DNA of 64,000 bases from contig CAKKNE010000001.1 in assembly GCA_918797485.1 (NCBI GenBank), positions 1,178,001-1,242,000 of the forward strand, given 5' to 3'. This stretch comes from Pelagomonas calceolata. Taxonomy: Eukaryota. Both the position numbers and the translations under genes were made by a program. This document shows positions 3,397 to 63,206 of this stretch, piece after piece. Below the pieces are notes generated by a model. The model made no database searches. It had not been told where the DNA came from and saw nothing but the letters and a program-made list of their open reading frames with translations. Position 1 is the first letter of the stretch, and the number at the start of each line of letters is the position of its first letter.

Positions 3397-5736
3397 TTAT
3401 AGATACGGCGCCGACGCGGGCGGCGCGGAAGGAGGCGAGTCGTCCTCCGAGTCCGGCAGCGCCATGGCCCAGAAAGCGTGCGTGCCTTTTCTCTTCAGTA
3501 GTCTCATGGACCCCCGCACGACTCTGACGACGTCCGGTACTTCTCTGATAGCCTCAAATAATCGATCCAGGTGGTCCCGGTCGTCGACATGAACGGTATA
3601 TTGAAAAGCAGCTTGCCCACCGGGAGCGCGCGTCTCCGACATCACGTCGACGATGTTGACCATGGAGACCGCTTGCGAGACATCTAAGAGCATCCGCGTG
3701 CGGTCGCGCCCGAACACGACTAGTGAAGAATCATAGCCAAGGACTTCACCGGTAAAAGCGTCCTTGACTTTCGAGGAAGGACCTAAGGCCTGCCTCACGG
3801 CGTCGTAATCATCATCATTCATCGCTAGGGCCGCGCCGTCGACGAAGCGCGCCCCAGGTCGCTCTAGTTCCCTCCTCAAAACTTCGCAGTCGCAGTTGGC
3901 CCTATGTACGGTACCTCGCGTCGAGTGCTGGGCCGCCACCCCATGCACGGCATCACCCGGCAACGGCCGACAGACGCTACAAAGCTGCCAGGGCTCCCGC
4001 TCCTGTAAGGGCAGTTCTTCCTGGGCGGCAAAAGAAATAATATCGCCGTTCCGCAGGACGTAGGACGACGCCTCGGAGACCTCATTGACCAAGGCGCCGC
4101 CCTGCACGTCGATGCCCCAGTCGCCGCCCTGGATGACATGTGCCACCGCATCATTTAATGTTGCGCCCTTCGCGAGATTGAGAATCCTCCCTTGGGGCGC
4201 GAAGACAAAGACCCTACTGCCCAATAGCTCGTTACGTACAAGCTCCATAAATACCGAAGCCGAATCGACTTGGGCCTCCCATTCCCCAATAATCTGCAGC
4301 CAGGGTAGGGACGCGGTCTCGTCCTTATAAGACCAATGTGCTGCGGCGCCGAGCTCCGCGACGCGGTGCATGTCGTCGGTCCTTATTTGTACTTCTAGAG
4401 GCTGGGAACCAACTAACACTGTGGTATGTAAGGATCTATAACCATTGGGTTTTGGCGAACTAATATAATCTTTGAGCGTGCGAGGTAGGGGCGTCCACCG
4501 GCCATGCACCTTCCCTAGGACGTGATAACATAAAGCCGTGTCGTCTTCTACCGACTCTGTGGTGTCATCGGCCTCCAGAATGACGCGCAACGCCACGAGG
4601 TCGTCGACGCGCTCCAAGCCGCACTGCTGCCTTCTCATCTTCTTCCACGTACTATACGCTGATTTTGTTCTCCCTTCGACCCTAATTCTTCGAGCTCGAC
4701 CCCTCACAAGCTCGTCCCCGTACAGCATCTCCTCGAGTTGCTGCCGACAAGACTCGAGAGCGGCTTCGCACCTCTTCCTACGACCTTTGATAGCCGTATC
4801 CAGCGCCAGGTACTCGCCAGGGTATAAATGCCGGAAGGCTGCGTCTTCCAATTCGGTCTTGTACGTCCAGATACCTAACCGATGCGCTAACGGCGCGAAG
4901 ATCTCGAGCGTCTCGCGCGCGATCCTCGTCCGCTTCTTCGGCGGCATGAACTCCAGGGTGCGCATGTTGTGCAACCTATCAGCAAGCTTGACGACCACAA
5001 CCCTCCAGTCGCCGGCCATGGCCACGAACCTGCGCGGATATCAAGCTTTTACGGCGCGTTACGCCATCGACGCGACGCTTGCTCGACGGCGTGCACCCGA
5101 CGCACTGGTTTGATTTCCACACGCTGCCACGCACATGCTCCGCATGTTCTCGACCTGCTCCCGTTCGGCGTCCCAGTCCGGCGTATTTAACTCCCGGGCC
5201 ATCTTCGGGAGCTTCGAGACCTTCGTCTCGCCCTCGACGATGCCTCGCACGTCGCGCCCGAACATCGCCTCCACTTCTTGAAAGGTCATGTCCGTGTCTT
5301 CGACCGTGTCGTGCAATAATCCACTAACAACAGCGTCGCGGTCCATCCTCGTTTCTGCGAGGATGGATGCTACTGCAACAGGGTGAGTGACGAACGGCTG
5401 CCCGGAGCGCCGCGTCTGGCCGCGATGCGCCAAGAAGGCGACCTCGAGAGCGTACCTTACTGCTTGCCGCGCCGACGGCCGCAGATAAGTGGTAGCTTTC
5501 TGCAGCTGCTCCGCATAGGTCAACATCTCGAGCGCGTCTTCGGGCCGCGCGGTCTCGAGTCGTTCGAACAACGACGGGGCGTGCTCCCGGATTTCCGCAG
5601 CATAGGCGAAGGCCTCCTCCACGTTCTCGAGGTCGACCTTCGGTACGACGGCCTGGAACCTCGCGTGGGGGCGCCGCGAAGGAGGGCTCAGCCAGGCGCT
5701 GGCCGGGGCCGCGGCCAGGAGCCAGAGCAGCCGCAT
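3397..5736 (-). CDS. RSH: Plastid-targeted long RelA/SpoT homologue ((p)ppGpp synthetase/hydrolase); exons 5736-5135, 5029-3397
   Basis: Signal peptide + ASAWLSP. HD motif [47 protein letters not shown]-like segment, [15 protein letters not shown] zinc finger, ACT-like C-terminus. Splicing restores ENMRSM|FVAM. Confidence 0.93.
5030..5134 (-). mobile_element. Introner-derived intron (105 nt, GT-AG)
   Basis: GTGCGTGG...CGCGCAG, followed by exon GTTCGTGG (7/8 TSD). Contains GTGTGGAAATCAA and three blocks shared with the 30783-30960 element. Confidence 0.9.
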
Positions 5737-6795: not shown

Positions 6796-6936
6796 TCCCT
6801 AAGATAGTTAGATTTCAAACTTCGCGTCGATGGCGTGTTGGTGGGTAGAAGCGTGCCCAAACACGCCGTCGCCGCGGCGGCGGTACCTAGTACACTCATA
6901 TGTTACTGCCGCGCCGCCGGCGTTTAGATAAGAAAG

Positions 6937-20221: not shown

Positions 20222-21146
20222 ATGCAGCGAAAAGTCGTCGCACTCGCCCTCGCGGCCACCGCCGTGGCGGCATGGCAGCCGGCCACTCGCATCAGCAGCC
20301 GCGCGACGCCGCTGAAGATGAGCGAGCAGCTCACGGACGACGAGGAGGCCGAGATCATTGCGAACGCGCAGAAAATCGCGAAGAAGAAGCGCTCGAACCT
20401 CTACAACGAGGAGGGCGTCGCCTACGTGCGGTGCAGCGCATCAATCAAATTGTATAAAGTGCTCCGCCAACGCTGCATCAGGCCCTCCACGCCGTCGACG
20501 CGCCGCCGGCGCAACGGCGGGGCGGTCTGGGACTTGCGCCCCTCCATGCGGCCAGCGCGGCCTCGCGCACCCGACTCACCGGTTCATTCACACGCAGGCG
20601 CCCTGGATGGTCAGGCAGGTCGACGAGGACGCCGTCGCCGCGGCGCGCGCGATGCGCGGCTACGAGAAACGGCGGGAGCGCATCGCGCTCGAGGAGAAGC
20701 AGGGTACGATCAACATCTTGGACGCTGCCTCCTCGGAACTCACGGGGTTGGGACTGAAGGCCAAGGTCTTGTCGGAGGACGAGGTCGAGCTGACGTGGTC
20801 GACGGACGACGAGGAGGCCAACCGGGGCTTCCTGGTGGAGAGAAAAGCTGTGGGCTACAGCGACTGGGATGAAGTCGCCTCCTACCAGTCGTGGTCGCCC
20901 CTCAAATCCAAGGGCACGCTGGGCGGCGCCTACTCGTACATCGACGCGACGGTGTCCGAGGGCGAGTGGCTCTACCGTATCGTCGCGGAGCAGTCCGACA
21001 ATAGCCGCGCGATTGTCTGTCAGGTCGGCGTCTCCGTCGAGAACTCGGGCCAGCAGCTCCAGACCAAATTGGTTGTGGGCGGGTTTGCGGCGCTCGTGCT
21101 GGGCGCGCTCGCGGCGGGCGCGCTGCTGGACCCGATCAAGGGCTAG
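20222..21146 (+). CDS. Plastid-targeted protein with FN3-like fold and C-terminal TM helix; exons 20222-20425, 20598-21146
   Basis: Signal + AAWQP; spliced GVAY|APWM; VELTWST..GFLVERK..YSYIDATV..WLYRI is FN3-like. Confidence 0.75.
20426..20597 (+). mobile_element. Introner-derived intron (172 nt), inserted in the opposite orientation to the kinesin copy
   Basis: GTGCGG...CACGCAG. The 3' end GCACCCGACTCACCGGTTCATTCACACGCAG resembles GCACCCGACGCACTGGTTGATTTCCACACAG; contains CCACGCCGTCGACGCG. Confidence 0.85.
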
Positions 21147-22622: not shown

Positions 22623-23831
22623 TCAGAAGCTCTGGAGGCCGCGCCGCTGCGCGTTTTCCGCGTCCAACTGTGCATCGAGCACAACGCCATACACGGGGCC
22701 CTCGCAGACGGGGCACACGTCTTTCGTGACGCGCCAGCGCGAGAGGCAGTCCGCGCAGGCGACGTGGGCACACCCCGCCACGCGCGCCGCCGTCTCCACC
22801 GCCCCAAAGCAGATAGGGCACTGGTGGACACCTGTGTGGAAATCAAATTTCGGGCGCCCCACGCCGTCGACGCGACGTGATCCCGTGACGGCCATCGGCT
22901 CGAGAACCTAACTCACTTGTTGATTTCCACACGGGTGCACACCGGAGGCTCCTTGACCCGCCAAGGAACGAGCGAGTTTTCTCGCGAGGACCTTGTCGGA
23001 AAAGCTCGACGGACCGCTCTCGAAAGAGGACGGCCGCGAGTCGGGCGGCGTGGTATCGGTGGGAGGAAGCGGCGGCGGCTTCCAGCCCGCCGGCGTGGCG
23101 TCCGACGCGGGGACCAAAGGTGGAGGCGGGATGTCCTCGTTCTGCGTCGCGAGGCGCGCTCTATCTAATAAAGAGCACAAGACCGTCTGCGCGAGCGTCG
23201 CCGCGGCGCCGTTTGCTGCGGGAGCCCTCACGAGCCGTTCCCCAAAGTAGATGACGATGACGGCCGAGGGAGCTCTAGGCCCGCCCGGCGTCTTCGCGGG
23301 CGGCACCACGGGTAGAGCGATGGCCGTGCGCACTCCAGCATTGAGCGCCGCCTCCTGCCTCGCGTACGTCGACGACGCGCCGACCGCCGGGACGTCCACA
23401 ACTTCGGCGACGCCTAACAACCACACTCGACCAACTAAACCAATACCAGGACTGAAAGTGACGTGCGAGGCCACCCTTAACATCTTGGCGGTCGGGTCCT
23501 CGAGACACCTCATACAAGTATGGCCTCTCGGCGCGCGCATCGGCGAGTAGCAGCCGCGCTGCGCGCCGGCGCCGAACACGAGCGAGATCTGCTCGACGTC
23601 GTCATCGGTCACCGGTGTCGGTTCCGGGTTCGAGGGCGGCGGCCCCCAGCCGGCGGGGATGCGCGCCTGGCGCCCTTGCGCGCGCCAGATCTCGCAGACG
23701 CTCCAGGGCGCCGTCGTGTTTTGCGTCGCGCTGCAGAGCTCCGACGCGAGCCATTCCACATACGCCGTGTCGTCGCGCGGCACGACCAATGCGGTGGAGG
23801 GCACCCCCGTCGCGTCGCCGCCGCCGCCCAT
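22623..23831 (-). CDS. GAF-like domain + C3HC4 RING-finger protein; exons 23831-22943, 22831-22623
   Basis: FSPGIGLVGRVW...YARQEAALNAGVRTAIALPV (GAF-like), spliced GAS-G|VHQ to CPICF..CAHVACADC..W..CPVC (RING). Confidence 0.8.
22832..22942 (-). mobile_element. Introner intron (111 nt) with TIRs and 7/8 TSD
   Basis: Plus strand reads GTGGACAC-CTGTGTGGAAATCAA...TTGATTTCCACACGG-GTGCACAC. Confidence 0.93.
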
Positions 23832-29543: not shown

Positions 29544-31922
29544 TTAGAACGCCCCGACCGCATCCCCCCGCCCCGGCCCGTACATCTCGCCAAGCTGGGG
29601 CAGCATCTCCGAGCCCTTGCACGGCGACGTCGTCACGTAGCCCGTCGCGGCCACCGGGTTGTTGGTCAGCTTCTTCTTGCGGCGAGGTCTGCGGCGCGGC
29701 CCGCCGCGCCGCGCCAGCGCGTGCGAGAGCGATAAGGGCGTCGTGGAGGGAGGGGCTTCCGGCGGTGTCTCCCTGCCGTTCCCAGCCTTCAGGCACTTGA
29801 TCGACTTGTCGAAGAGGTCGTGCCACTTCTTCTCGCCGTCGTCGTAGGCGACACAATGTAATCCACGTTTCGGATCGTACGAGACGACGTCCCCAGCATA
29901 AGCCCGGTTGAACCGGAAGCTAAACACTTCGACGCGACCGCCGACGTCTCTCATGTCACCATACAATATCGCCGTAGGTTCCTCCGGCGGCGGCGACTGG
30001 ACGATTGGTGCCGGGGCTGGTTTCCGCCGCCGGCGGCGCCGCTGGGGCCGGGGCGGCGTTTTTTGTGGAGGCGGCGGCTCGTCGACCGCCTCCATCTCGG
30101 CCAGCTGCCTCTCCAATTCCTCGCGCTCCCGCCGGATCCGCTCGAACTCGGCCTCGTCCTGCGACAGCTCCTCCTCGACCTGGGCTTGGCGTTCCGCCAG
30201 CATCTTAGAAGCTGCCTTCTCTTCAAGCTTGGCAGCCTCCGCTGCTAAGCTATCGGAGGAGGCCCGCGCGGCCGACGTCGGCCGCGGGCCCACGACGGTA
30301 TCCAGCTTCTCGAGCCGCTGCTGGAACTGTGTTATACTAACGTCGTCGGGCTGCGACGACGGCCGCGGCGGCCGCCCCCGCTGCTTCTTCTTCTTCCGCG
30401 GCGACGTCCGCGAGACCATATCTGCTGAGGGGACCGCCTTGACGCTGGCCGCCATCTGAGGATCCAAGAGCTTCCTCAACTGTTCATTTTCCGCGCGAAG
30501 CGCCGCGACCTCGGCCTGGAGGCTCTTCGTCACGTCGACGAGCTGCATCTGCTTCACGAAGGACGGCGGCTTGACCGGCGATGCGCTCCTCAAAGCCTCC
30601 TTGAGGCGCCGGATCTCGTCCTTGGCCTTTTTGAGGGCCGTCGCGAGCGTCGCGTCGGACGCCGACGGCACGACGTCGCGATTCGCGTAGACGCGCGCGA
30701 GGACGCGCTGCGCGCGGTCCGCAAATTTCAAAGTAGACACGGACTCGTCCGCGTAGATCGATTCGGGGGCGCAGCACGCCACCTGTGTGGAAATCAAAAT
30801 TTTACGGCGCGTTCATCCTGAATCGCCGCGTCGACCTCCACGCCATCGACGCGACGCCTGCTCGATGGCTTGGCGATGCCGATTCCTCGCCGCTCGACAG
30901 AGCCAGCGCGGCCACGCCATCGCTGAGAAGCACCCGACGCACTGGTTGATTTCCACACAGCACGCCACAATTGCCGTCCGCGTATTCCCCCCCAATGAAT
31001 CCTGCAACAACCGCGTCAGCGTGCTGTCTCTATAAGGGACGTGCGGCCGTTTCGTCGGCCCGTCGCTGAGGGCCGACACCACGTTCCCCAGAGCGCTTAA
31101 CGAACGGTTGATGTCCACGTGTTCTTTGAAGCGCTGCGTCTCCGAGGGGTTGTACATTTTGGACGGGCTGCCCTCCGCGTCGTCCTCGAGGGCCGAGGCC
31201 CGTTCGCTTCCAGCTAAATCAACCAAATATAATCGAGACTTGACGACCTCTACATCATCCGTTTTCTCGATGTCGACCCTCAACACGGCGTGCGATCTAC
31301 TAGAAGCGTCGTTTCTTTTGGTCGAGCGCTCTCGTCTCCCTTTCAAGCCCCGATTCACAACTTTTAAAGCTGCCTCGGCGTCGTCCACCACGATGGAGGA
31401 CAACCCAGACACGTAGAGCTCATCGGTAACACGGGAGGCCAGCCGCACCCTCAGCGGTATTTCTGATGAAGGCGATAGGAGGTCCTCGAGCTTCTCGCCC
31501 AGGATTTGCAACAAACTGACGGAGACTTTGGCCGCTCTAGGTGCTGGAGTTTGGGCAACAGGTGTGGGCGGCTCGTCGCTCCCGAGCTTGTCAAATAGAG
31601 CGTTCAAAGCCTTCGGAATGATACCGTCGTTATCGCCGAGCATCGTATGTGTTTTGCCGGCCCCGGTCTGCCCATAAGCCATGACGCACGCGTTAATACC
31701 TTCGGTTGTTTGTAATACGACGTCCTCGACCTTGCGGTAGACGTCATTCTGCGTCGCTGCGGGCCCCAATATATCAGCAAACGCACCCGTGAAGCGCTTC
31801 CCATCACCACAATCCACCTCGAGCTGGTCCCCGCATGTGACAGCCTCCGTCTTTGTTTTATCTTGTGCCGGGCGCACCCTTACTACAACCCTGATGTTGG
31901 ACAGCTCGGCGGGCTCGTCCAT
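29544..31922 (-). CDS. Kinesin motor protein with coiled coil and C-terminal Tudor-like domain; exons 31922-30969, 30782-29544
   Basis: IRVVVRVRP, GQTGAGKT, SSRSH, LVDLAGSE, HVPYRDSTLTRLLQDSLGGN; spliced TAI|VACCAP; tail HCVAYDDGEKKWHDL. Confidence 0.92.
30783..30960. mobile_element. Intact introner element (178 bp) with 15-bp TIRs and perfect 8-bp TSD; intron = 30783-30968
   Basis: CACGCCAC(30775-82) CTGTGTGGAAATCAA...TTGATTTCCACACAG CACGCCAC(30961-68). On the minus strand the GT donor comes from the TSD and the AG acceptor from the TIR. Confidence 0.97.
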
Positions 31923-36512: not shown

Positions 36513-38268
36513 ATGCCAAAGGCATCCTCACTGCTGCTGCTGCTGCACGCCGCCGCCGCGCTGTGGAGCAAAACCGACTGGCGCACCATGTTCCGCACGG
36601 CCAGCGAGTGCCCGCGACGCACGCCGCTCGACGTCGTGCACGGTGCCATTCCCGCAGCGCTGCGCGGCACGGCCTACAAGGTCGGTCCGGGAAGATTTGG
36701 CGTCGGCAGCGAGGATTACGCACACTGGCTCGACGGCGACGGCTACGTCTTCGCGCTGGATTTCGCCGACGGCGGCGCTACATACTGCGCACGCTTCGTG
36801 GAGACGGCCGGCTACGTCGAGGAGCAGGAGAAGATCACATGGAGGACCACGTTCGGAACGCAAAGGCCGGGCGGCCCGCTGGCGAACGCCTTCGACCTGA
36901 AACTCAAGAATCCAGCAAACACGAACGTGTTGGCAATCCCGGGCCGCGACCGCGTCCTGGCGCTGTGGGAAGCGGGCGCGCCGCACGCCCTCGACATGGA
37001 GACACTTCACACAGTAGGCGTCGACTCGCTGGACGAGAGAGTCGTCCCGGGACCACCCGGCGCGCTCCCGCTAGACCTGCCGCTGCCCTTCACGGGAGAC
37101 GCCGTGAGCGCGCACTACGCCGCGTGCGCGACGACGAAGCAGACCGTGGCGTGGTCGTGGCGACGGCCCGCGTTGGGCGACGACCTCTTCGTGAAGCTCC
37201 ACGAGCTCTCGGACGTCAGCGGCCACGCCGAGGGCGGCGTCGATGGCGTCCTCGAGGGCGTGTCGTTCGCGCCCCATGATATAGGAGCGACGCCCACCCG
37301 TGCTTGTTTCTTAGCCGCACCGGCGCGAGGTCAGCGTCGACATTCACGCCATCGCCGCGGCTCATATTCACACGCAGGCAAGCGTCGAGGTGCTGGGCTA
37401 CGTCCTGGGCTTCCGCGGCCCGGCACAGGGCGTGTTCTTCGACGACAAGCGAATACGCGCGGGAGAGGGCACGACGCTCCATGCCCTCGACCGCAGAAAC
37501 GGCGGAACGGCGGAGCGGTACGTGTGCCCCGACGCGCACGACGCAGCGTCGGAATCAACGCGTCGATGGCGTCAGACATGTCCACGCAGGTACCATCCTA
37601 TTCACGTCGCCAACGCCTGGGACGACGAGACATCGGGCTGCCCGTCCATGATCGCGGCGTGCTGGCCTCCAGACTGCGTCAACGCGATGGCGTCCGAACG
37701 ACGGGACATCCTCGGCGACTGGGCACCGCTCCTCGGCGGCGATTTTTCGGGAGCTGCGGTGACGCAGCTCGTGTCGTTTAGCGGCCACGGCGGCGGCGCG
37801 AGGGCGCGCGTGCTGTGTAGCGGTGCGCATTTGGACCACTGTAAGGTGCACCCGGCCGCCGGTGGCCTCGAGAACAAATTCGTCTACGCCTCCGCCGGCG
37901 CCGCCGTCGCGCGTGGTGACATCAATGACCTCACTTATGCTGCACCGCAACCGCCCCAGGCGTTCGTCCGCGTCGACGTATCTGAGGATGCCGTCGTCGA
38001 TTCGTGGTTCTGCGGCGAGCGGCGGTTCACGGACGACGCGGTGCTCGCGGCAACAGGGGAGGACGAGACTGATGCCTATCTTATAGCGCCGGTCTACGAT
38101 GCCGCGACGCAGCGGTCTACGATTATAGTGCTCGACTGCGGTGACCTCGCCGCGGGACCGGTCTGCGAGCTCGCCCTGCCCGACGACGCGCCATTTATCC
38201 CGTGGGGCCTACATGGCGCCTGGAGCCCCGCAGCGAACGGTGCTACCCGCGCCACCGAGCATGTATGA
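36513..38268 (+). CDS. CCD: Carotenoid cleavage oxygenase (RPE65/CCD family), probably plastid-targeted; two short introns
   Basis: HWLDGDG, KNPANTNV, LALWEAGAPH, AVSAH, FAPHD, IHVANAWD, PWGLHGAW (four Fe-binding His). Introns 37323-37377 and 37518(or 37536)-37589. Confidence 0.88.
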
Positions 38269-42845: not shown

Positions 42846-45800
42846 CTACGAGGGCGACGTCGGCGGCGACGCCGCCTGCAAACTCCGCCGCCGTTCCCGC
42901 CGCGCCGCGAGCTGCCGCTCGAGCTCCTCGGTCTCAGGTTTCAACTTCTCGAGCTCGGCCTCGGCTTGGTGGCGCCGCGCTGAGGACAACGCCCGCTTCT
43001 CCTCGGCCTCCTTTGCACGAGTAGCTAATTCTTCCACTTCCAACTTGAGCTTCTCCGCGAGCTCCTCTTTCACTTGAGCCTCGCGCTCCATGGCCTCCGC
43101 CTCAACGACGACCTTCTCGATCTCCGGCGAGAGAGCTGCGGCCTTTTCGCGTAGAGGCGACCGAGGTGGAGTTGCGGGCACGTCCGGCGCCGGCAGCGAC
43201 TCCTCGAACAGCGCATCGACGCGTCGCTCGACGACGTCGAAGACGGCCTCGTCGTCGGTCTCACTCTGCACCGATGGCTGTTCGATCTCCAGGGAAGGAC
43301 GTTCACGTCTTTTCCGGGCCGACTTGCCGACCATGATCCTACCTTGTCGACCGCGCTCGGCCGCTTGGAGTGTCGTGGCCATCTTCTGCTCCGTGAGACG
43401 CTGCGACCGTTCGGCGTGGCCCCGGTACCGAGCTTGTAGGGTCGTAGCGCACGCGTCGACGTCATTTATCGATTCTTCATCAGACGTCTCCTCCTCATCC
43501 ACATAGTGCGACGACATAGGTTGTCCTTTGACGGGCGTGGGGTCCGCGAACCTCGCGCGAGGCCCTTCTCTACTTCGCGTCTCTCTTTGTTGATCAACAT
43601 CTTGCTTGATCTCATCTTCATCCCTATCTACTTCTCTACCGTCGGGAAACACGGGCTCGTCACCGGTCGCGAACCGTACCGAAGTGCGGGAAGGTGGTCG
43701 CTCCGGCTCCTCTTCGTGGAACCGCTGCGTCTCCTCCCAGGCCTCCATGGCGGCCCTACTTTGTCTACGAGCTTCGACGTGGTGGCCTTGAGCTGCTAAA
43801 GAGCGCTCGAACTCCAACTCCTCGATGGCCGCCGCGTGTATTTTCGCGGCGGCGCCTCGAGGTACTAAACCTTCGAGTAATTGGAACACGGTCGGTTCTT
43901 GCTCCGACGCGACGACCTGCACCAGAAACTCCCATCCGAGGTCCTCCCGCACCAGTCGTTCCGCACACAACCGCGGCTGCCTTATACTACACTTCTCGAG
44001 GATCAGTTCCAGTTGTTCCGCCTCGGCTTGAGATCTTGGTGATAACGGCTCTAGGGCCGATCCTAATCTGCCAGCTCCGCTACGTAATAGCGCTCGGAGC
44101 TCCTCGAGCTCTTCGGGACTGAACGGCATGCCGCTCTCGAGGAATTGATCCGAGGGCGTGAAAGGCGGCGGTGGCGACGCCCCGTCGTCCTCATAGATTC
44201 CGAGGTCGGCGTCCTCGCCGTAGGCGAAGGAACGGGGCGCGGGCGTCGGCCGTCTCTCTAATCGTTTCGGCGCCGGCGCCGGGCTGAACGTCGCGGGGTC
44301 CACGAGCTCGCAGACGCGTTTTGATAGCATATCAGCATCTTCATGTGACAGGTCTTCGTCGGCGCCCTGCATCGCCAGTTCGGCGATGTCCTCGGAGCGC
44401 ACCGTCGCTATTGATTTGCGCGCGGACCCCAAGGACGTCGCCTCGACATCGACGGACCCGTCCGCTCTTGCTACCACAGCGCAGAGCAGTAATTTCTCGT
44501 CGAAGCGCTTGCCCAGCGTCCGCACGCGTCGCCCGCGCGCGGGCTCGCCCGCGATGGCGACGCGCTTTGTCGTTCGCGCATTGCGGCCCCTTACTCTAGC
44601 TTGCAGCTTCGTGGCCGCGCGGTCGTCGTCGTTTGGTGAAGGCAGCGCGTCGCCGAGCGCCGTCCCGCCGTCCTCGGCCATGTCGGCTTCGACGGTTGTT
44701 TCGCCGGCGGCGAGGACGTCCGGTTCCTCCGCGGTCGTCGGCTCGGCCACGGGCTCGGTTGTGGGCTCTGCAGTGGGCTCGGCCGTCGGCTCGGCCGTGG
44801 GCTCGGTTGTGGGCTCCGCCGTCGGTTCCACCGTCGGCTCCGCAGTGGGCTCCGCGGTCGGCTCCGCCGTAGGTTCGGCCGTAGGCTCCGCTGCATCGGC
44901 TGCGGGCGCCGGCGGCTCAGATGCGGGCGCCGGCGCCGCCTCGTCCGCGGTCGGCTCTGCTGCTGGCGCGGGCGCGGCCTCCTCCGCGGTGGGCTCAGCG
45001 GCTGGCGCCGGCGCGCCCTCGTCCGCAGTGGGCTCCGCAGTGGGCTCGGCCGTAGGCTCCGCGGCAGGCTCGGCCGTAGGTTCCGCGGTCTCCTCGGCGG
45101 CTGGTGCCGGCGGCGTTGCGGCTGTGGGTTGCTCGTCACCGGCGGTCTCGGCTGCGTCCGCTTCTGCCGCCGGGGCTGGGGCTTGAGTGTCTGGTGCCGG
45201 CGTCGGCGGCGCGGCGTCGGCTGTCTCGGCCGCCGGCGCCAGCTCCGCCTCTTCGGCGGCCGGGACCGTCGGTGCCGCCACGGACGTAGGCGAGGGCGTA
45301 TCCGCCTCTGCTGAGGGCGCTGGGGCTTGTGCGTCTATTGCCGGCACCGGCGGCTCCGCGGCGGCTGCGGGTTGCTCGGCCTCTTCTGCGGCGGGCGCCG
45401 CCTCGGCCGTAGGCGCGGCCGCGTCCACGGCCTCCGCCGCGGGGGCCGGGGCTTGAGCGTCTGTTTCAGGCGCAAGCGGCTCCGCGGCGGCCGCCGGTGG
45501 GTCCACGGCAGTGGCCTCGGCCGCCGGAGCCGGCGCGGCGTCTTCCGCGGCGGGCGCGGGCGTGGTCGTTTCTGCATCGGCGGTCGGTTCCGCTGCTGGC
45601 GCCGGCGCGGCCTCGTCGGTCGGCTCGACTGCCGGCGCGGGCGCAGCCTCCTCCGCGGTGGGCTCCGCTGCTGGCGCCACGGCGTCCTCCGCAGGCGGCT
45701 CGGCTGCCGGCGCCGGCGCGGCCTCGTCAGCGGGCGGCTCGGCTGCAGGCGCGGGCGCCGCCTCGTCCGCGGCAGGCTCTGCTGCTGGCGCCGGCGCCGC

Positions 45801-48800
45801 CTCCTCTGCGGGCGGCTCGGCTGGCGCAGGCGCCGCCTCGTCAGCGGGCGGCTCGGCTGCAGGCGCGGGCGCGGCCTCCTCCGCGGCAGGCTCAGCGGCT
45901 GGCGCCGGCGCGGCCTCGTCGGTCGGCTCAGCTGCCGGCGCCGGCGCGGCCTCGTCGGTCGGCTCGGCTGCTGGCGCCGGCGCCGCCTCCTCTGCGGGCG
46001 GCTCGGCTGGCGCAGGCGCCGCCTCGTCAGCGGGCGGCTCGGCTGCAGGCGCGGGCGCGGCCTCCTCTGCCGTCGGCTCGGCTGCTGGCGCCGGCGCCGC
46101 CTCCTCTGCGGTGGGCTCAGCGGCTGGCGCCGGCGCGGCCTCGTCGGTCGGCTCGGCTGCAGGTGCCGGTGCCGCCTCGTCGGTCGGCTCGGCTGCTGGC
46201 GCCGGTGCCGCCTCGTCGGTCGGCTCGGCTGCTGGCGCCGGCGCGGCCTCCTCTGCAGGCGGCTCGGCTGGCGCAGGCGCCGCCTCGTCCGCGGGCGGCT
46301 CGGCTGCTGGCGCGGGCGCCGCCTCCTCTGCCGTGGGCTCGGCGGCTGGCGCCGGCGCGGCCTCCTCCGCTGCAGGCGCGTCAGCGGCAGGCGCAGGCGA
46401 CTCGGCGTCTGCCGCTGGCGCCGGTGGCTCCGCAGCAGCTGCTGGCGCCGGCGGTTCCGCATCGGCTGCCGGGGCCGGCGGCTCGGCCGCGTCTGCCGCG
46501 GGCGCCGGCGCGGCCTCCTCGGCATCCGCCGCCGGCGCCGGCGCGGGTGGCTCCTCGGCTGCGGGCTGCTCGGCCGCCGGTGCGGGCGCCGCCTCTTCCG
46601 CGGCGGGCGCGGGCGGCTCCGCGGCGACGGCAGGCGCCGGTGGCTCCGCTGCTTCTGTCGCTGGCGCGGGCGCGGCCTCCTCTGCTGCGGGCGCCGGCGG
46701 CTCGGCGTCGGCTGATGGTGCCGGCGGTTCCGCTGCCGGCGCGGGCGCGGCCTCCTCTGCTGCGGGCGCAGGCGGTTCAGCAGCTGCCGCCGGCGCTGGT
46801 GGCTCTGCTGCTGGTGCCGGCGCGGTCTCCTCCGCGGCAGGCGCCGGCGGCTCTGCTGCATCAGCTGCGGGCGCCGGTGGCTCTGTGGCCGGCGTAGGCG
46901 CGGCTACTTCTGCAGCTGGCGCAGGCGCGGCCTCTGGTGCGGGCTCGGCGTCTGCCGCCGGCGCCGGCGGTTCCGCGGCAGCCGCGGGGGCGGGCGGCTC
47001 AGCTGCCTCCGCTGCGGGCGCTGGGGGTTCCGTCGCGACGGCGGGCTCCGCCGCCGGCGCAGGCGCGGCCTCGTCCGCGACCGGCGCCGGCGGTTCGGCG
47101 GCGGCCGCGGGCGGCTCCGCTGCGTCCGCGGCAGGGGCCGGCGGTTCGACAGCGGCTGGTGCCGGTGGCTCCGCTGCCGGCGCGGGCGCGGCCTCCTCCG
47201 CGGCAGCCGGGGGCTCTGCGGGTTTTTCCGCATCCGCGGCCGCGGGCTCGCCGTCGGCGGCGGGCGCGGGGGGCTCCGCCGCCGGAGCGCCCGGCTCCTC
47301 GCCGGCCGGCGGCGCCGCTGGCTCGGCCAGGGCGGTCCCGGCGTCGGCCGCGGCTTCCGGCCCAGGCTCCGCAGCTTGCTCCGCCGGCGGCGCCGCGGCG
47401 GCTTCTTCGGTCGCAGGCGGCGCCGCGGCGGCTTCTTCCGCGGCAGGCGCAGCTTCCGCAGCAGGCTCTGCCGCTGGCTCCGCCGCCGCCGCGGCTGCAT
47501 CCTCGGGAGTAGGCTCGGCTGCTTCCGCTGGCGGCGCCGCGGCGGCCTCCTCGGCCGCAGGCGTAGCTTCCGCGGTCGGCTCGGCCGCGGGCTCTGCGGT
47601 CGGCTCGGTCGCGGGCTTGGCCGCGGGCTCGGCCGCGGGCTCCGCAGTGGGTTCCGCAGTTGGCTCGGCCGCGGGCTCGGCGGTGGGCTCGGCCGCGGGC
47701 TCGGCCGCGGGCTCTGCGGCCGGCTCGGACGCAGGCTCGGTCGCGGGCTCTGCGGCCGGCTCGGCCGTAGGCTCGGCCGCCGGCTCGGCCGCGGGCTCGG
47801 CCGCCGGCTCGGCCGCGGGCTCGGCCGCCGGCTCGGCCGCGGGCTCGGCCGCCGGCTCGGCCGCGGGCTCGGCCGCGGGCTCGGCCGCGGGCTCTGCGGC
47901 CGGCTCGGCCGTAGGCTCGGCCGCCGGCTCGGCCGCCGGCTCGGCCGCCGGCTCGGCCGCGGGCTCGGCCGCCGGCTCGGCCGCGGGCTCGGCCGCGGGC
48001 TCGGCCGCGGGCTCTGCGGCCGGCTCGGCCGTAGGCTCGGCCGCCGGCTCGGCCGCCGGCTCGGCCGTAGGCTCCGCTGCGGGCTCGGCCGCGGGCTCGG
48101 CCGTGGGCTCGGCGGCCGGCTCGGCCGCGGGCTCGGCGGCCGGCTCGGCCGCGGGCTCGGCGGTCGGCTCGGCCGCGGGCTCTGCGGTAGGCTCGGCCGC
48201 GGGCTCGGCCGCGGGCTCGGCCGTGGGCTCTGCGGCAGCAGGCTCTGCCGCTGGCTCCGCCGGTGGCGCCGCAGCGGCCTCCTCGGCCGCGGCCGGCGCC
48301 GCGGCGGCCTCTTCCGCGGCCGCCGCTATCTCCGCCCGTTCGTGGGGCAACTTGTAGTCGCTCGCGGGCGGCGCCGCGGCGGCCTCGTCGCTCGCCGGCG
48401 GCGCCGCGGGCTCGGCCAGGGCGGTCCCCGCGTCTTCGGCGGCGGGCGCGGTCGCCGGCGCCGCCGCGGCGTCGTCGAACGTCGGGGGCGCCGCGGCCGG
48501 CGCCTCCTTAATTGGCGACGCCGCGGGCGATCCCGGAGAGACGGCCGGCGCCTCGCTCGCCGCCGGCGCCGGCGCCGGCGCGGCCGCCGGCGGCGGGAAG
48601 AGCGCCGCTAATCTTAACCGTTCGGCCTCGGCCGCGGCCTCCTGCTCCAGTCTCAAAGCCTCGGCCGCCTCGGCTAACGCGTCGCGCTTCGCCTCGGCGG
48701 CTGCCAAGTCGTCGACGCCCGCCTTCGCCGCGCGTTCCAGAGCCGCCTCCAACACTTCCAGAGAGTCGCCTTCTAAAGCCGCAGCGAGCGCCTCAGTAGC

Positions 48801-50738
48801 GTCAACCTTCTCCTTGGCCCGGCGCGCCTTGTCGGCCGCGAGCTCCTCTCGTAGGCGCTTCGCCTCCTCCTCGGCCGGGTCCGGCGCAAATTCCCGCTTG
48901 ACGTGCACAACTTTCACCAGCTGGCACTTGAGCTTCGTGAACCTACCCTTGCCTTGTAACGCGAGAGACTCGACGATAGCCTCGCCGACGTCATAGGCAT
49001 GTTCGCTCCAGTCCTTACCTACTAACGCTTTGTTCTCCCAGTCCAGATCCTCTTGCTTCAGTACGAGCTGGGACGCTTTGCCGGTGTCCGAAGGCGTGAC
49101 GTCACACGTGATAGCTTCAGGTGAATGAGTGCACTTGATGGTACATACTCTTCCTGAAAGCTCGCCTTCCTTCTCGATGGGATATTCTCTCGCAGGCGGT
49201 GGAGGTTTAGCAGCTTCCTCGGCCGCCAAGCGTTCCGCCTCCTCCTTCGCACGTTGTTCCGCAGCTAGTCTCTTGGCCTCCTTCTCCTTGAGCATCTTCT
49301 CCTTGGCTGCCGCCTCGTCTATCTTAGCTTGTTCTGCTAACCTTACCTTCTCGGCCTCGGCCTCGATAGCCAGCTGCTTGGCGACCTCGCGCTTCTCCTC
49401 CTCGGCCTTGGCCAACCGTATGGCCTGCTCGGCCATCTCCTTGTCCTCCCTCAGCAATCTAGCTTCATAATCTTTAACAGCTTGAATGGCCGCTTCCGCC
49501 TTCTCGCGATCGATCCTCAGTTCTTCTTGGTGGTAGAACTCGACCAGCCAGATCTTTGTCAGCCTCGCGACGGCGTCCGCGACGGCCCGCTCGGCCCGCG
49601 CCCGGTCGCGCTTCCGCTCCCTTTGTTTGATTCGGAGCTCGGCGGCGGCTTTTTTCGCTTTCGCCCTTTTAGCTAAGGCCTCGTCCCGACCCATGAAGGA
49701 CGTGATGTCACTCATCACTAATTTATCCAACCAGTCCTGCGCAGCGTCAGCGGCGTCCTGCGCGGCTTTGCGGTCGGCCTCGAGCCGCGCCTGGTGCTCC
49801 GCGCGCATCTTCTTGACCATCGACACTCTCCCATCAGCTCGCACAATAATATCGCCCTTCGGAACCTCTTCCGCCTCCTTCTGGCGCCACCGCTCCTCCG
49901 CTTGGATCTGCAGTCGCACGCGTTCCAACTTCGCGCGCCGTTCCCGGTCCTTTTCCTCCTGAATCCTCCTCTCTTCAGCTTCTCGGATCTTCCGATTCCG
50001 GATCTGCACGGAGCACATCCTTCTCGCATATTTCTGGAGCACCGTCGCCGCGGGCTGCGTGTATTTATTTAACTCAATCAGGAAATCCGCCATCAGTTCG
50101 TCCCAATCTACGCTCGCCAAAATCTTCTCCTTCTCGGCTTTAGTCGGGACCCTGTACTCGTCCGGTATCGTTGCGGGATCTGGCGTTAAGGGGTCGTATT
50201 TTTTCTTTTTTCTTTTTGTGGGCGGTCTCCCGTAGATCTTCTGCGAGGGCTTGTACAACTTCTTGCGCGTCGGAAAGTCGTCCCAGGCCGATTTTAGTTG
50301 GATGGATCCATAGTCCAACGTCTCGCCGTACTGGCTGTCGGTCATCAGTACCGACTTACTTAGTGTTTCATCGAGCCACGACTCATCTTTCTTCTGGACA
50401 CGCCTGACGGCCTTGGGCATGATCTGGATCTTGCCGTTGAACGACGCGACGGGAAAGTAGGGCTCCCGCGTGCCCCGCACCTGGCCGGCTTGGCCGACGA
50501 ACGCAAATCTAGGTGGTAAGTACTGCTGCTCGATATTGGCTTTGATGGCTTCTCGTAGATGTGTTAATGACGCATCTCCACCAATGGGTATGATGCCCAG
50601 AGGCTTCTTGACGCCCTTCAATGAAACTTCGATCGTCGTCTGCGCGCCCTCGACGCTGTCGAGCTTGGGCTTGCCGCTGTCGGCCGTCCATGCGGCGCGC
50701 GGCGACGCTTCGGGCGGTGGCGCGTCGGTCTCCGCCAT
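42846..50738 (-). CDS. Giant (~2630 aa) protein: coiled coils, ~1200-aa Ala/Glu/Pro repeat linker, IQ motifs
   Basis: Single open frame. IQ-like motifs LQKYARRM, LQARVRGRNAR, LQARYRGHAER, LQAAERGRQGR. Confidence 0.85.
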   Translation of the reverse strand: MAETDAPPPEASPRAAWTADSGKPKLDSVEGAQTTIEVSLKGVKKPLGIIPIGGDASLTHLREAIKANIEQQYLPPRFAFVGQAGQVRGTREPYFPVASFNGKIQIMPKAVRRVQKKDESWLDETLSKSVLMTDSQYGETLDYGSIQLKSAWDDFPTRKKLYKPSQKIYGRPPTKRKKKKYDPLTPDPATIPDEYRVPTKAEKEKILASVDWDELMADFLIELNKYTQPAATVLQKYARRMCSVQIRNRKIREAEERRIQEEKDRERRAKLERVRLQIQAEERWRQKEAEEVPKGDIIVRADGRVSMVKKMRAEHQARLEADRKAAQDAADAAQDWLDKLVMSDITSFMGRDEALAKRAKAKKAAAELRIKQRERKRDRARAERAVADAVARLTKIWLVEFYHQEELRIDREKAEAAIQAVKDYEARLLREDKEMAEQAIRLAKAEEEKREVAKQLAIEAEAEKVRLAEQAKIDEAAAKEKMLKEKEAKRLAAEQRAKEEAERLAAEEAAKPPPPAREYPIEKEGELSGRVCTIKCTHSPEAITCDVTPSDTGKASQLVLKQEDLDWENKALVGKDWSEHAYDVGEAIVESLALQGKGRFTKLKCQLVKVVHVKREFAPDPAEEEAKRLREELAADKARRAKEKVDATEALAAALEGDSLEVLEAALERAAKAGVDDLAAAEAKRDALAEAAEALRLEQEAAAEAERLRLAALFPPPAAAPAPAPAASEAPAVSPGSPAASPIKEAPAAAPPTFDDAAAAPATAPAAEDAGTALAEPAAPPASDEAAAAPPASDYKLPHERAEIAAAAEEAAAAPAAAEEAAAAPPAEPAAEPAAAEPTAEPAAEPAAEPTAEPAAEPTAEPAAEPAAEPAAEPAAEPTAEPAAEPAAEPTAEPAAEPAAEPTAEPAAEPAAEPAAEPAAEPAAEPAAEPAAEPAAEPAAEPTAEPAAEPAAEPAAEPAAEPAAEPAAEPAAEPAAEPAAEPAAEPAAEPTAEPAAEPATEPASEPAAEPAAEPAAEPTAEPAAEPTAEPTAEPAAEPAAKPATEPTAEPAAEPTAEATPAAEEAAAAPPAEAAEPTPEDAAAAAAEPAAEPAAEAAPAAEEAAAAPPATEEAAAAPPAEQAAEPGPEAAADAGTALAEPAAPPAGEEPGAPAAEPPAPAADGEPAAADAEKPAEPPAAAEEAAPAPAAEPPAPAAVEPPAPAADAAEPPAAAAEPPAPVADEAAPAPAAEPAVATEPPAPAAEAAEPPAPAAAAEPPAPAADAEPAPEAAPAPAAEVAAPTPATEPPAPAADAAEPPAPAAEETAPAPAAEPPAPAAAAEPPAPAAEEAAPAPAAEPPAPSADAEPPAPAAEEAAPAPATEAAEPPAPAVAAEPPAPAAEEAAPAPAAEQPAAEEPPAPAPAADAEEAAPAPAADAAEPPAPAADAEPPAPAAAAEPPAPAADAESPAPAADAPAAEEAAPAPAAEPTAEEAAPAPAAEPPADEAAPAPAEPPAEEAAPAPAAEPTDEAAPAPAAEPTDEAAPAPAAEPTDEAAPAPAAEPTAEEAAPAPAAEPTAEEAAPAPAAEPPADEAAPAPAEPPAEEAAPAPAAEPTDEAAPAPAAEPTDEAAPAPAAEPAAEEAAPAPAAEPPADEAAPAPAEPPAEEAAPAPAAEPAADEAAPAPAAEPPADEAAPAPAAEPPAEDAVAPAAEPTAEEAAPAPAVEPTDEAAPAPAAEPTADAETTTPAPAAEDAAPAPAAEATAVDPPAAAAEPLAPETDAQAPAPAAEAVDAAAPTAEAAPAAEEAEQPAAAAEPPVPAIDAQAPAPSAEADTPSPTSVAAPTVPAAEEAELAPAAETADAAPPTPAPDTQAPAPAAEADAAETAGDEQPTAATPPAPAAEETAEPTAEPAAEPTAEPTAEPTADEGAPAPAAEPTAEEAAPAPAAEPTADEAAPAPASEPPAPAADAAEPTAEPTAEPTAEPTAEPTVEPTAEPTTEPTAEPTAEPTAEPTTEPVAEPTTAEEPDVLAAGETTVEADMAEDGGTALGDALPSPNDDDRAATKLQARVRGRNARTTKRVAIAGEPARGRRVRTLGKRFDEKLLLCAVVARADGSVDVEATSLGSARKSIATVRSEDIAELAMQGADEDLSHEDADMLSKRVCELVDPATFSPAPAPKRLERRPTPAPRSFAYGEDADLGIYEDDGASPPPPFTPSDQFLESGMPFSPEELEELRALLRSGAGRLGSALEPLSPRSQAEAEQLELILEKCSIRQPRLCAERLVREDLGWEFLVQVVASEQEPTVFQLLEGLVPRGAAAKIHAAAIEELEFERSLAAQGHHVEARRQSRAAMEAWEETQRFHEEEPERPPSRTSVRFATGDEPVFPDGREVDRDEDEIKQDVDQQRETRSREGPRARFADPTPVKGQPMSSHYVDEEETSDEESINDVDACATTLQARYRGHAERSQRLTEQKMATTLQAAERGRQGRIMVGKSARKRRERPSLEIEQPSVQSETDDEAVFDVVERRVDALFEESLPAPDVPATPPRSPLREKAAALSPEIEKVVVEAEAMEREAQVKEELAEKLKLEVEELATRAKEAEEKRALSSARRHQAEAELEKLKPETEELERQLAARRERRRSLQAASPPTSPS
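44740..48300 (-). repeat. Coding minisatellite arrays (12-bp AEP[A/T] units and ~30-36-bp EEAAPAPAAEP units)
   Basis: GGCTCGGCCGC[G/C] arrays at ~47570-48230 and ~44740-44890, with longer units between. Confidence 0.9.
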
Positions 50739-62212: not shown

Positions 62213-63206
62213 CTAGATGCCGAGGAGGTCGTCGATGTCGTCCGTGTCCGCAGCCGTGAAGTGCGTCTCCTGCTGAGACGGCGCCGGCGCTTTCGCGGGA
62301 GACGCGCCAGCTCTGGTGCCGACGTCGCGCTGACACAAAGGACAAGACCTATTGCGTAAGAGCCACTGGTCCAGGCACTCCGCGTGCTCCGCGTGGCGGC
62401 ACGGTAAGATCCGGACAATATCATCATCATCATACTCGCAGCGGCAGACCGCGCACTGCTCGCCGAGAATAGCAAACGTTTCACCCTTGCTCTTGGCTTC
62501 ACCGTACGTGCAGGTCGGCAGGTCGTCGAGCTGCTTCTGGTCCGTGCCTTTGGATACTTTCCCGACGTTCTCCCCTAGCTGTAAAAGTTGATCATAGGTC
62601 ATCTGCGACGGCGACAGCGATCTTTCAGTAGCTCCTTCCGGAGGTTCGATCCCGCCGTTCATCGCCATGAGCAGGGCCCTATCGTCGTCCTCCTGCTGGA
62701 GGCGCCAGGCCAGCGCTAAGCTCTCGTCGTAGTCGTCCTCCTCCTCCTCTTCGTCGCCTTCGTCGCCTGTGTTGACATCGACCGGTGAGTTCGGTTGATA
62801 CGCCATCGAGCCGACGAAGGCATGGTTTCCACGCAGATCTGTCACCCTCGTCGTCCTCACCGTCGGACGAAGCCTCCTCGCGCCGCCTCTGGGAAAGCTC
62901 CGCATGTCTAGCTGCTCCCTCCTCCTGCTCCCGCGCGTACCGCTCCTCGCGCTCCTGGAGCTCGAGGGCCAGTCTGAGGGATTCCTCCTCGGCGTTCTCG
63001 GGCTCGTCGGGCGGCGGGCTCTCGCGGCGCCGCTCGCGCACCGGCGTCGGCGCCTCGCTCGGGTCGCAGTTCGCGCTCGGGTCCCGGTACGGAGACAGGG
63101 GCGGGCCGGCCGGCGTCGGCGCCTCGCTCGAGGTGGCGGAGGCGAACGCGAGCGTCCGTTTCGCGCGGTCGGCCTGGACGGGCGTGTCCTCGGCGTAGCT
63201 CGCCAT
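62213..63206 (-). CDS. RING-H2 E3 ligase with UIM-like helices (BIG BROTHER-like layout); exons 63206-62846, 62766-62213
   Basis: EESLRLALELQ, DESLALAWRLQ, MTYDQLLQLGENVG, CAVC..LPCRHAEHAECLDQWL..CPLC. Confidence 0.85.
62767..62845 (-). mobile_element. Decayed introner intron (79 nt)
   Basis: GTGACAGAT-CTGCGTGGAAACCA...GATGTCAACACAG, then exon GCGACGAA; contains CTCGATGGCGT. Confidence 0.85.

Follow-up and report, generated by a model that had tools for sequence, protein, structure and literature searches.

A kinesin gene of Pelagomonas calceolata is interrupted by a 178-bp member of a repeat family whose ends are inverted repeats, which is read, with high confidence, as most likely a non-autonomous cut-and-paste DNA transposon of the introner type; the element, together with one 8-bp duplicate of its target (186 bases in all), is missing from the RNA. 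The features on which this reading is based are collected in Table 1, where positions refer to the window, i.e. the whole stretch of 64,000 nucleotides that was analysed.

Table 1. Features of the interrupted kinesin gene, of the element contained in it and of the decayed relatives of the element found in the window.
Feature	Position	Strand	Evidence and remarks
Kinesin exon 1 (318 codons), with the larger part of the motor domain	30969..31922	-	Pfam PF00225, E 5e-75; 100% to P0001
Kinesin exon 2, 412 codons and stop	29544..30782	-	the joined frame equals P0001 (730 aa)
Intron, 186 nt, phase 0, GT-AG; in-frame stop if retained	30783..30968	-	RNA joint, 4/4 RNA runs
Non-coding element, very probably a MITE-type introner, 178 bp	30783..30960	.	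anatomy; in DNA contigs, the same ends adjoin dozens of other flanks
Terminal inverted repeat, intron 3' end; T-rich tract and acceptor AG	30783..30797	-	sequence, RNA joint
Terminal inverted repeat, intron 5' side (intron positions 9-23)	30946..30960	-	sequence
Target-site duplication, copy 1 (8 bp), intron nt 1-8, source of donor GT	30961..30968	-	sequence, RNA joint
Target-site duplication, copy 2 (8 bp), exon 2 nt 1-8, Val-Ala-Cys codons	30775..30782	-	sequence
Internal GT, donor in gene model CAH0364340.1, adding 10 residues	30933..30938	-	absent among the RNA joints listed
Decayed relative	5030-5134	-	removal leaves a 764-codon open frame; duplication 7/8
Decayed relative	22832-22942	-	removal leaves a 392-codon open frame; duplication 7/8
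Decayed relative	20426-20597	+	removal leaves a 285-codon open frame; duplication 5/8

A 178-bp element with 15-bp terminal inverted repeats (TIRs) and a perfect 8-bp target-site duplication (TSD) had been proposed in an earlier, sequence-only reading of this DNA, and the description proved exact on recheck. The two inverted arms, 15 nt each, are 100% complementary, and the two 8-mers are identical (8/8), reading GTGGCGTG on the minus strand. On that strand GT opens the 8-mer and AG closes the element. Both tips of the element end in AG, each on its own strand, so that either orientation can work as an intron. The direct repeat spans 11 nt, since bases 1-3 of the element are the same as the three exon bases past the 8-mer. 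Loose ends of other family copies, seen in RNA and DNA alignments, fall at 30781-30783 and at 30960; they set the ends of the element and a duplication of 8 bp, and by the same token a duplication of 11 bp was ruled out.

The TIR 15-mer is matched six times in the window at no more than two mismatches, against 0.02 matches expected, and its recurrence is not due to chance. A looser structure, defined by an 8-bp direct repeat and inverted ends of only 10 bp, 50-3000 bp apart, occurs once in the window and was found in one of 20 simulated windows. The intron is predicted to fold with its TIRs paired (-86.2 kcal/mol, z -2.85); such pairing would bring the intron ends together but would also hide the acceptor.

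Excision of the intron yields a 730-aa frame, which reads TAIVACCAP across the joint and equals P0001, a Pelagomonas calceolata kinesin of 730 aa from a transcriptome collection, letter for letter. In the search with exon 1, the other named matches were pelagophytes, and the motif at the insertion site is ungapped in all the aligned homologues (9/9). If the insert is kept, the kinesin frame stops after 369 aa; neither exon contains a frameshift or a stop.

The sequence-only reading had placed the donor GT in the first TSD copy and the acceptor AG at the TIR end, with TAIVACCAP restored, and had proposed an RNA-seq junction at 30968/30783 as a check; a 186-base joint, present in 4/4 RNA runs (X21, X22, X12 and X13), agrees with both. 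In X21 five reads, with four distinct starts, skip the 186 bases at an exon depth of about 5-7, and one read does so in X22; the two runs derive from one sample, about 6% of either run was read, and raw junction reads total six. X12 and X13, both presumed to be RNA, contribute one contig each. The skip allows 12 equivalent cut placements, of which only 30968/30783 gives GT-AG ends. The exon reads all run in one direction, which fits a transcript from the minus strand, given a stranded library of the usual kind.

Any intron-retention signal at this locus is masked, as the element is covered a hundredfold by reads from other copies. Among poly(A) reads, those from other copies run in both directions, give the ends of the element a depth hundreds of times that of the exons, and include a common variant with a different interior. 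This deep cover indicates that many copies are part of transcripts, either mature or unspliced.

Splicing might involve a donor inside the element, at 30938 or 30956, as the main site, in which case the insertion would alter the motor domain. The donor at 30938, 30 nt inside, reproduces exactly the NCBI model CAH0364340.1 (P0015, 740 aa), which exceeds the transcriptome protein by 10 residues, VACCVEINQC; a donor at 30956 would keep the frame and add four residues, and a mode adding 12 nt is described, in the part of PMC9860276 concerned (Fig. 2F), for a family of Aureococcus sp. The RNA joints were judged on the 15 listed out of 52. Among those 15, skips of 156 or 174 bases, i.e. the other junctions, are absent, while the skip of 186 recurs in 4/4 RNA runs; the five junction reads of X21 compare with an exon depth of about 5-7, the transcriptome protein P0001 is scarless, and the insert is absent from every other protein spanning the site. 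A main donor inside the element is accordingly rated as very unlikely, and CAH0364340.1 probably reflects an annotation error, or a minor form at best.

The family also has, at one of its ends, an internal donor word that resembles the consensus and is located about 18 nt from the tip; here this word lies at 30942 on the minus strand, and it has counterparts in relatives at 22832-22934, 20426-20597 and 62767-62836. Use of the donor at 30942 would shift the kinesin frame.

RNA alone cannot separate splicing from an empty allele, because the scarless product equals the empty sequence. The strains of the RNA runs might thus lack the element, so that the gap would be an empty allele; in the strain of the window the gene might then be broken. 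A spliced and an empty sequence are necessarily the same, and the RNA samples (S4, S8 and S9) are different from the DNA samples (S1, S2, S3 and S10); moreover P0017, an identical, uninterrupted protein encoded on a 2.3-kb contig of unstated molecule type, may be either a transcript or an empty allele. Against this, the site is filled in 4/4 DNA runs, three of which share the organism code of the RNA runs, and the flanks are without differences in the pieces listed, in DNA and RNA runs alike; the gap ends in GT-AG, and both exons are free of frameshifts and stops. An empty allele in the RNA strains is therefore extremely unlikely. Splicing of the filled gene within one strain is inferred from the identical flanks and the shared organism code.

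In each of the four DNA runs (X1, X2, X3 and X14) contigs lead into the element from the left and from the right flank, without a single deviating letter (0), and no skip of 186 bases was found among the 15 of 105 joints listed for these runs. No empty allele was seen within P. calceolata; the flanks are identical in the four DNA runs, which may be one clone, and this makes them a weak test of presence or absence. The sequence-only reading had asked for presence/absence polymorphism among strains: none was seen in 4/4 filled DNA runs, possibly one clone, and an empty site was found in a relative.

This relative was found by a metagenome scan, which returned six loci, of which only one, L054, covers the site, so that 1/1 covering locus is empty. 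L054 aligns over window positions 34368-30090, including the upstream neighbour region, and for this reason is likely DNA. It is without exactly the 186 bases at the orthologous site, where it reads Ile-Ile-Ala-Cys, the target being without GT. As judged by divergence, with differences at 98/273 four-fold sites, L054 is a sister lineage and not a strain. The empty orthologous site implies that the intron was gained after the split from that lineage. That an old intron was later hit by the element, or that the intron was lost in the relative, has a negligible probability: only one orthologue is available as DNA, and it is as distant as stated, but the intron is made up of the element and a single duplicate of the 8 exon bases that follow, and nothing else, L054 is empty and without GT at the site, and the anatomy alone nearly refutes this possibility.

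Gain of the intron by insertion of the element is the preferred reading, and its age can be bracketed: the insertion postdates the sister-lineage split, yet is not brand new. Compared to the family majority, as derived from DNA contigs, the kinesin copy has another letter at 6-7 of 178 sites, and at three of the differing sites at least 95% of the sequences, by depth, carry the other letter in X1. Long pieces of the other loci listed differ by 3-9 letters in 72-101. The kinesin copy is the best preserved one in the window, as judged against its decayed neighbours. The perfect TSD had been taken to suggest a young insertion; this claim is weaker, in view of the 6-7 differences and of the 4/4 filled DNA runs, and a perfect TSD is here poor evidence of youth, because one of its copies lies in coding sequence and the donor lies in the other. 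Similarly, to describe the element as caught creating an intron is an overstatement, given the same 6-7/178 differences, no empty allele of the same species and no matching transposase found. Six uninterrupted proteins (P0013, P0014, P0016, P0017, P0025 and P0031), showing 94-100% identity and encoded on contigs of 2-20 kb, give a hint of possible empty sites in nearer relatives.

The TIR-bounded sequence is not single-copy. In each of the four DNA runs, 30-47 contigs exit the right end of the element into other flanks, and 18-31 per run exit on the left side, at 30781; dozens of other flanks are thus found in DNA contigs. Beyond the right end, the majority letters start with GT in five runs and with GC in one (RNA and DNA together). 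This would be expected if the targets of many oppositely oriented copies started with a donor as well. The summed depth of element contigs is about a thousand times that of the flanks, a value not taken as copy number.

Three decayed relatives in the window (Table 1) appear to follow the same scarless intron rule, in both orientations, since their removal leaves open frames; the relative at 20426-20597 is oriented opposite to its gene. The one at 5030-5134 splits the HD domain of a RelA/SpoT-type gene, with Pfam positions 1-106 and 106-156 on either side.

Other sequences of the window resemble parts of the element. TIR-like remnants ending in CAG, without a clear duplication, were observed at 62767-62836 and at about 37260-37377, and the remnant near 37300 lies within an RPE65-family gene. 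A 17-base core of the element has 13 matches in the window at no more than two mismatches, against 0-1 in simulations. Eight core matches, at 6821, 8818, 9071, 11758, 25018, 52348, 52387 and 62143, have no visible TIRs and several of them are intergenic; they are either old remnants or a separate functional motif. The window also contains, at 42846-50738 on the minus strand, an open frame of 2630 codons, which has IQ motifs and whose middle part is repetitive and very rich in GC.

Outside the alga, the TIR 15-mer was found in viral contigs at 53 loci, with one match each, which was read as chance: one of the 53 loci has a loose inward pair, none is similar to the interior of the element, and a 27-mer of the element end has no matches in viral contigs. 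A 21-mer has one match in prokaryote genomes, located at the extreme end of L060, a contig of a bacterial metagenome-assembled genome, which ends, at 2630-2675, in about 45 bases of the element end. No transposase-like frame was recognized by eye in L060, and the match is probably due to an assembly chimera with algal DNA.

Formation of the intron can be described in terms of established cut-and-paste transposition, from which the steps of transposition are deduced; the ends, the duplication, the RNA junction, the other copies and the empty orthologue were directly observed. A transposase supplied in trans, probably of the hAT type, would make an 8-base staggered cut in the target, and repair would duplicate the 8 bases. 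As the target starts with GT, the first duplicate would become a splice donor, and the terminal AG of the inverted repeat, behind a T-rich tract, would become the acceptor. The spliceosome would then excise the element along with one duplicate, to give an mRNA as before the insertion.

As to the mobilising enzyme, the window had been described as free of transposases, and indeed Pfam detected no transposase families in 45 of its 67 ORFs of at least 150 aa. In the published annotation, one transposase-labelled gene, Tc1-like, is present among 14,639 of 16,667 genes. Tc1-like transposases make 2-bp duplications, and this gene is therefore unfit as a mobiliser, the duplication being 8 bp here. 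A TSD of 8 bp is a feature of the hAT superfamily, although other superfamilies with 8-bp duplications exist; the 8-bp TSD observed here fits hAT elements and those other superfamilies as well. The mobilising transposase is probably of the hAT type, a label taken, by description, from the table of Gozashti et al. 2025.

The kinesin intron is a tidy, RNA-supported teaching case, in which a DNA transposon makes an intron, the protein is unchanged and an empty orthologue proves the gain. The sole practical gain is the likely correction of one public gene model (CAH0364340.1). The case would acquire greater weight if P. calceolata proved to have empty alleles and the transposase that mobilises the element. 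It is considered unlikely that the family is still jumping, with filled and empty kinesin alleles segregating in wild P. calceolata by the action of a hAT-like transposase missing from the published annotation; if true, a still-jumping family would make P. calceolata a live system for watching the birth of introns, and a minor motor isoform, 10 residues longer and produced from an internal donor, would be a bonus.

The characteristics found for the kinesin copy are those of TIR-type introners: it has TIRs, a TSD which is single at the empty site, an interspersed multi-copy family, GT-AG removal (in unmatched RNA and DNA samples), one splice site carried and the other taken from the duplication, and an orthologue without the intron. 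Introner elements were reportedly described in Aureococcus anophagefferens by Huff, Zilberman and Roy in 2016. In Aureococcus introners, according to the account cited in 10.1101/2020.10.14.339549, one splice site is carried and the other derives from the TSD, in either orientation; those of A. anophagefferens are also cited in the portions of PMC9860276 and PMC11282704 considered. Likened by these descriptions, they share with the kinesin copy the rule of one carried and one recruited splice site, in another genus. The link to the Aureococcus mechanism made by the sequence-only reading stands as to identity and mechanism, as shown by the RNA junction, the multiple copies and the empty orthologue; the family has, however, been reported in P. 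calceolata too, and not in Aureococcus alone. Family 4 of Aureococcus sp., as depicted in PMC9860276 (Fig. 2F), resembles the kinesin copy in belonging to a pelagophyte and in its 8-bp TSD. In that figure both splice sites belong to the element, and 12 nt are added, whereas the kinesin RNA is scarless; the +12 option is also present in the TIR of the kinesin copy.

For P. calceolata itself, 956 putative introner elements are reported by Guerin et al. 2022 (PMC9481584, Supplementary Note 3; preprint 10.1101/2021.10.25.465678), described there as about 200 bp long, with conserved TIRs, a GT/GC donor and an AG acceptor. In the passages compared, species (by protein identity), similar size, splice ends and TIRs agree with the kinesin copy; the comparison is by description, TSD length and TIR sequence of the introners not being given in those passages. 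In the parts of Gozashti et al. 2025 (PMC12130899) considered, 11 introner families are listed for P. calceolata, including family 2 (table sd07), with 340 copies, TIR DNA/hAT, annotated 'co-opt 5' carry 3''; its hAT class derives from a match to hATv-2N1_EHux, and the element starts 7 columns after the donor. By that description, family 2 and the kinesin copy are alike in species, TIR class and splice rule, and differ in length (202 bp as listed vs 178 bp) and TIR (13 vs 15). The TIR 13-mers of the element have no match in the 14 supplementary files of PMC12130899, which give no family sequences. As matched by description in this table, the kinesin copy likely belongs to family 2 of P. calceolata, and may alternatively belong to families 1, 5 or 24. 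Nothing is new in kind, the same splice rule having already been published for P. calceolata introners: the kinesin intron belongs to a type of introner for which descriptions from P. calceolata exist.
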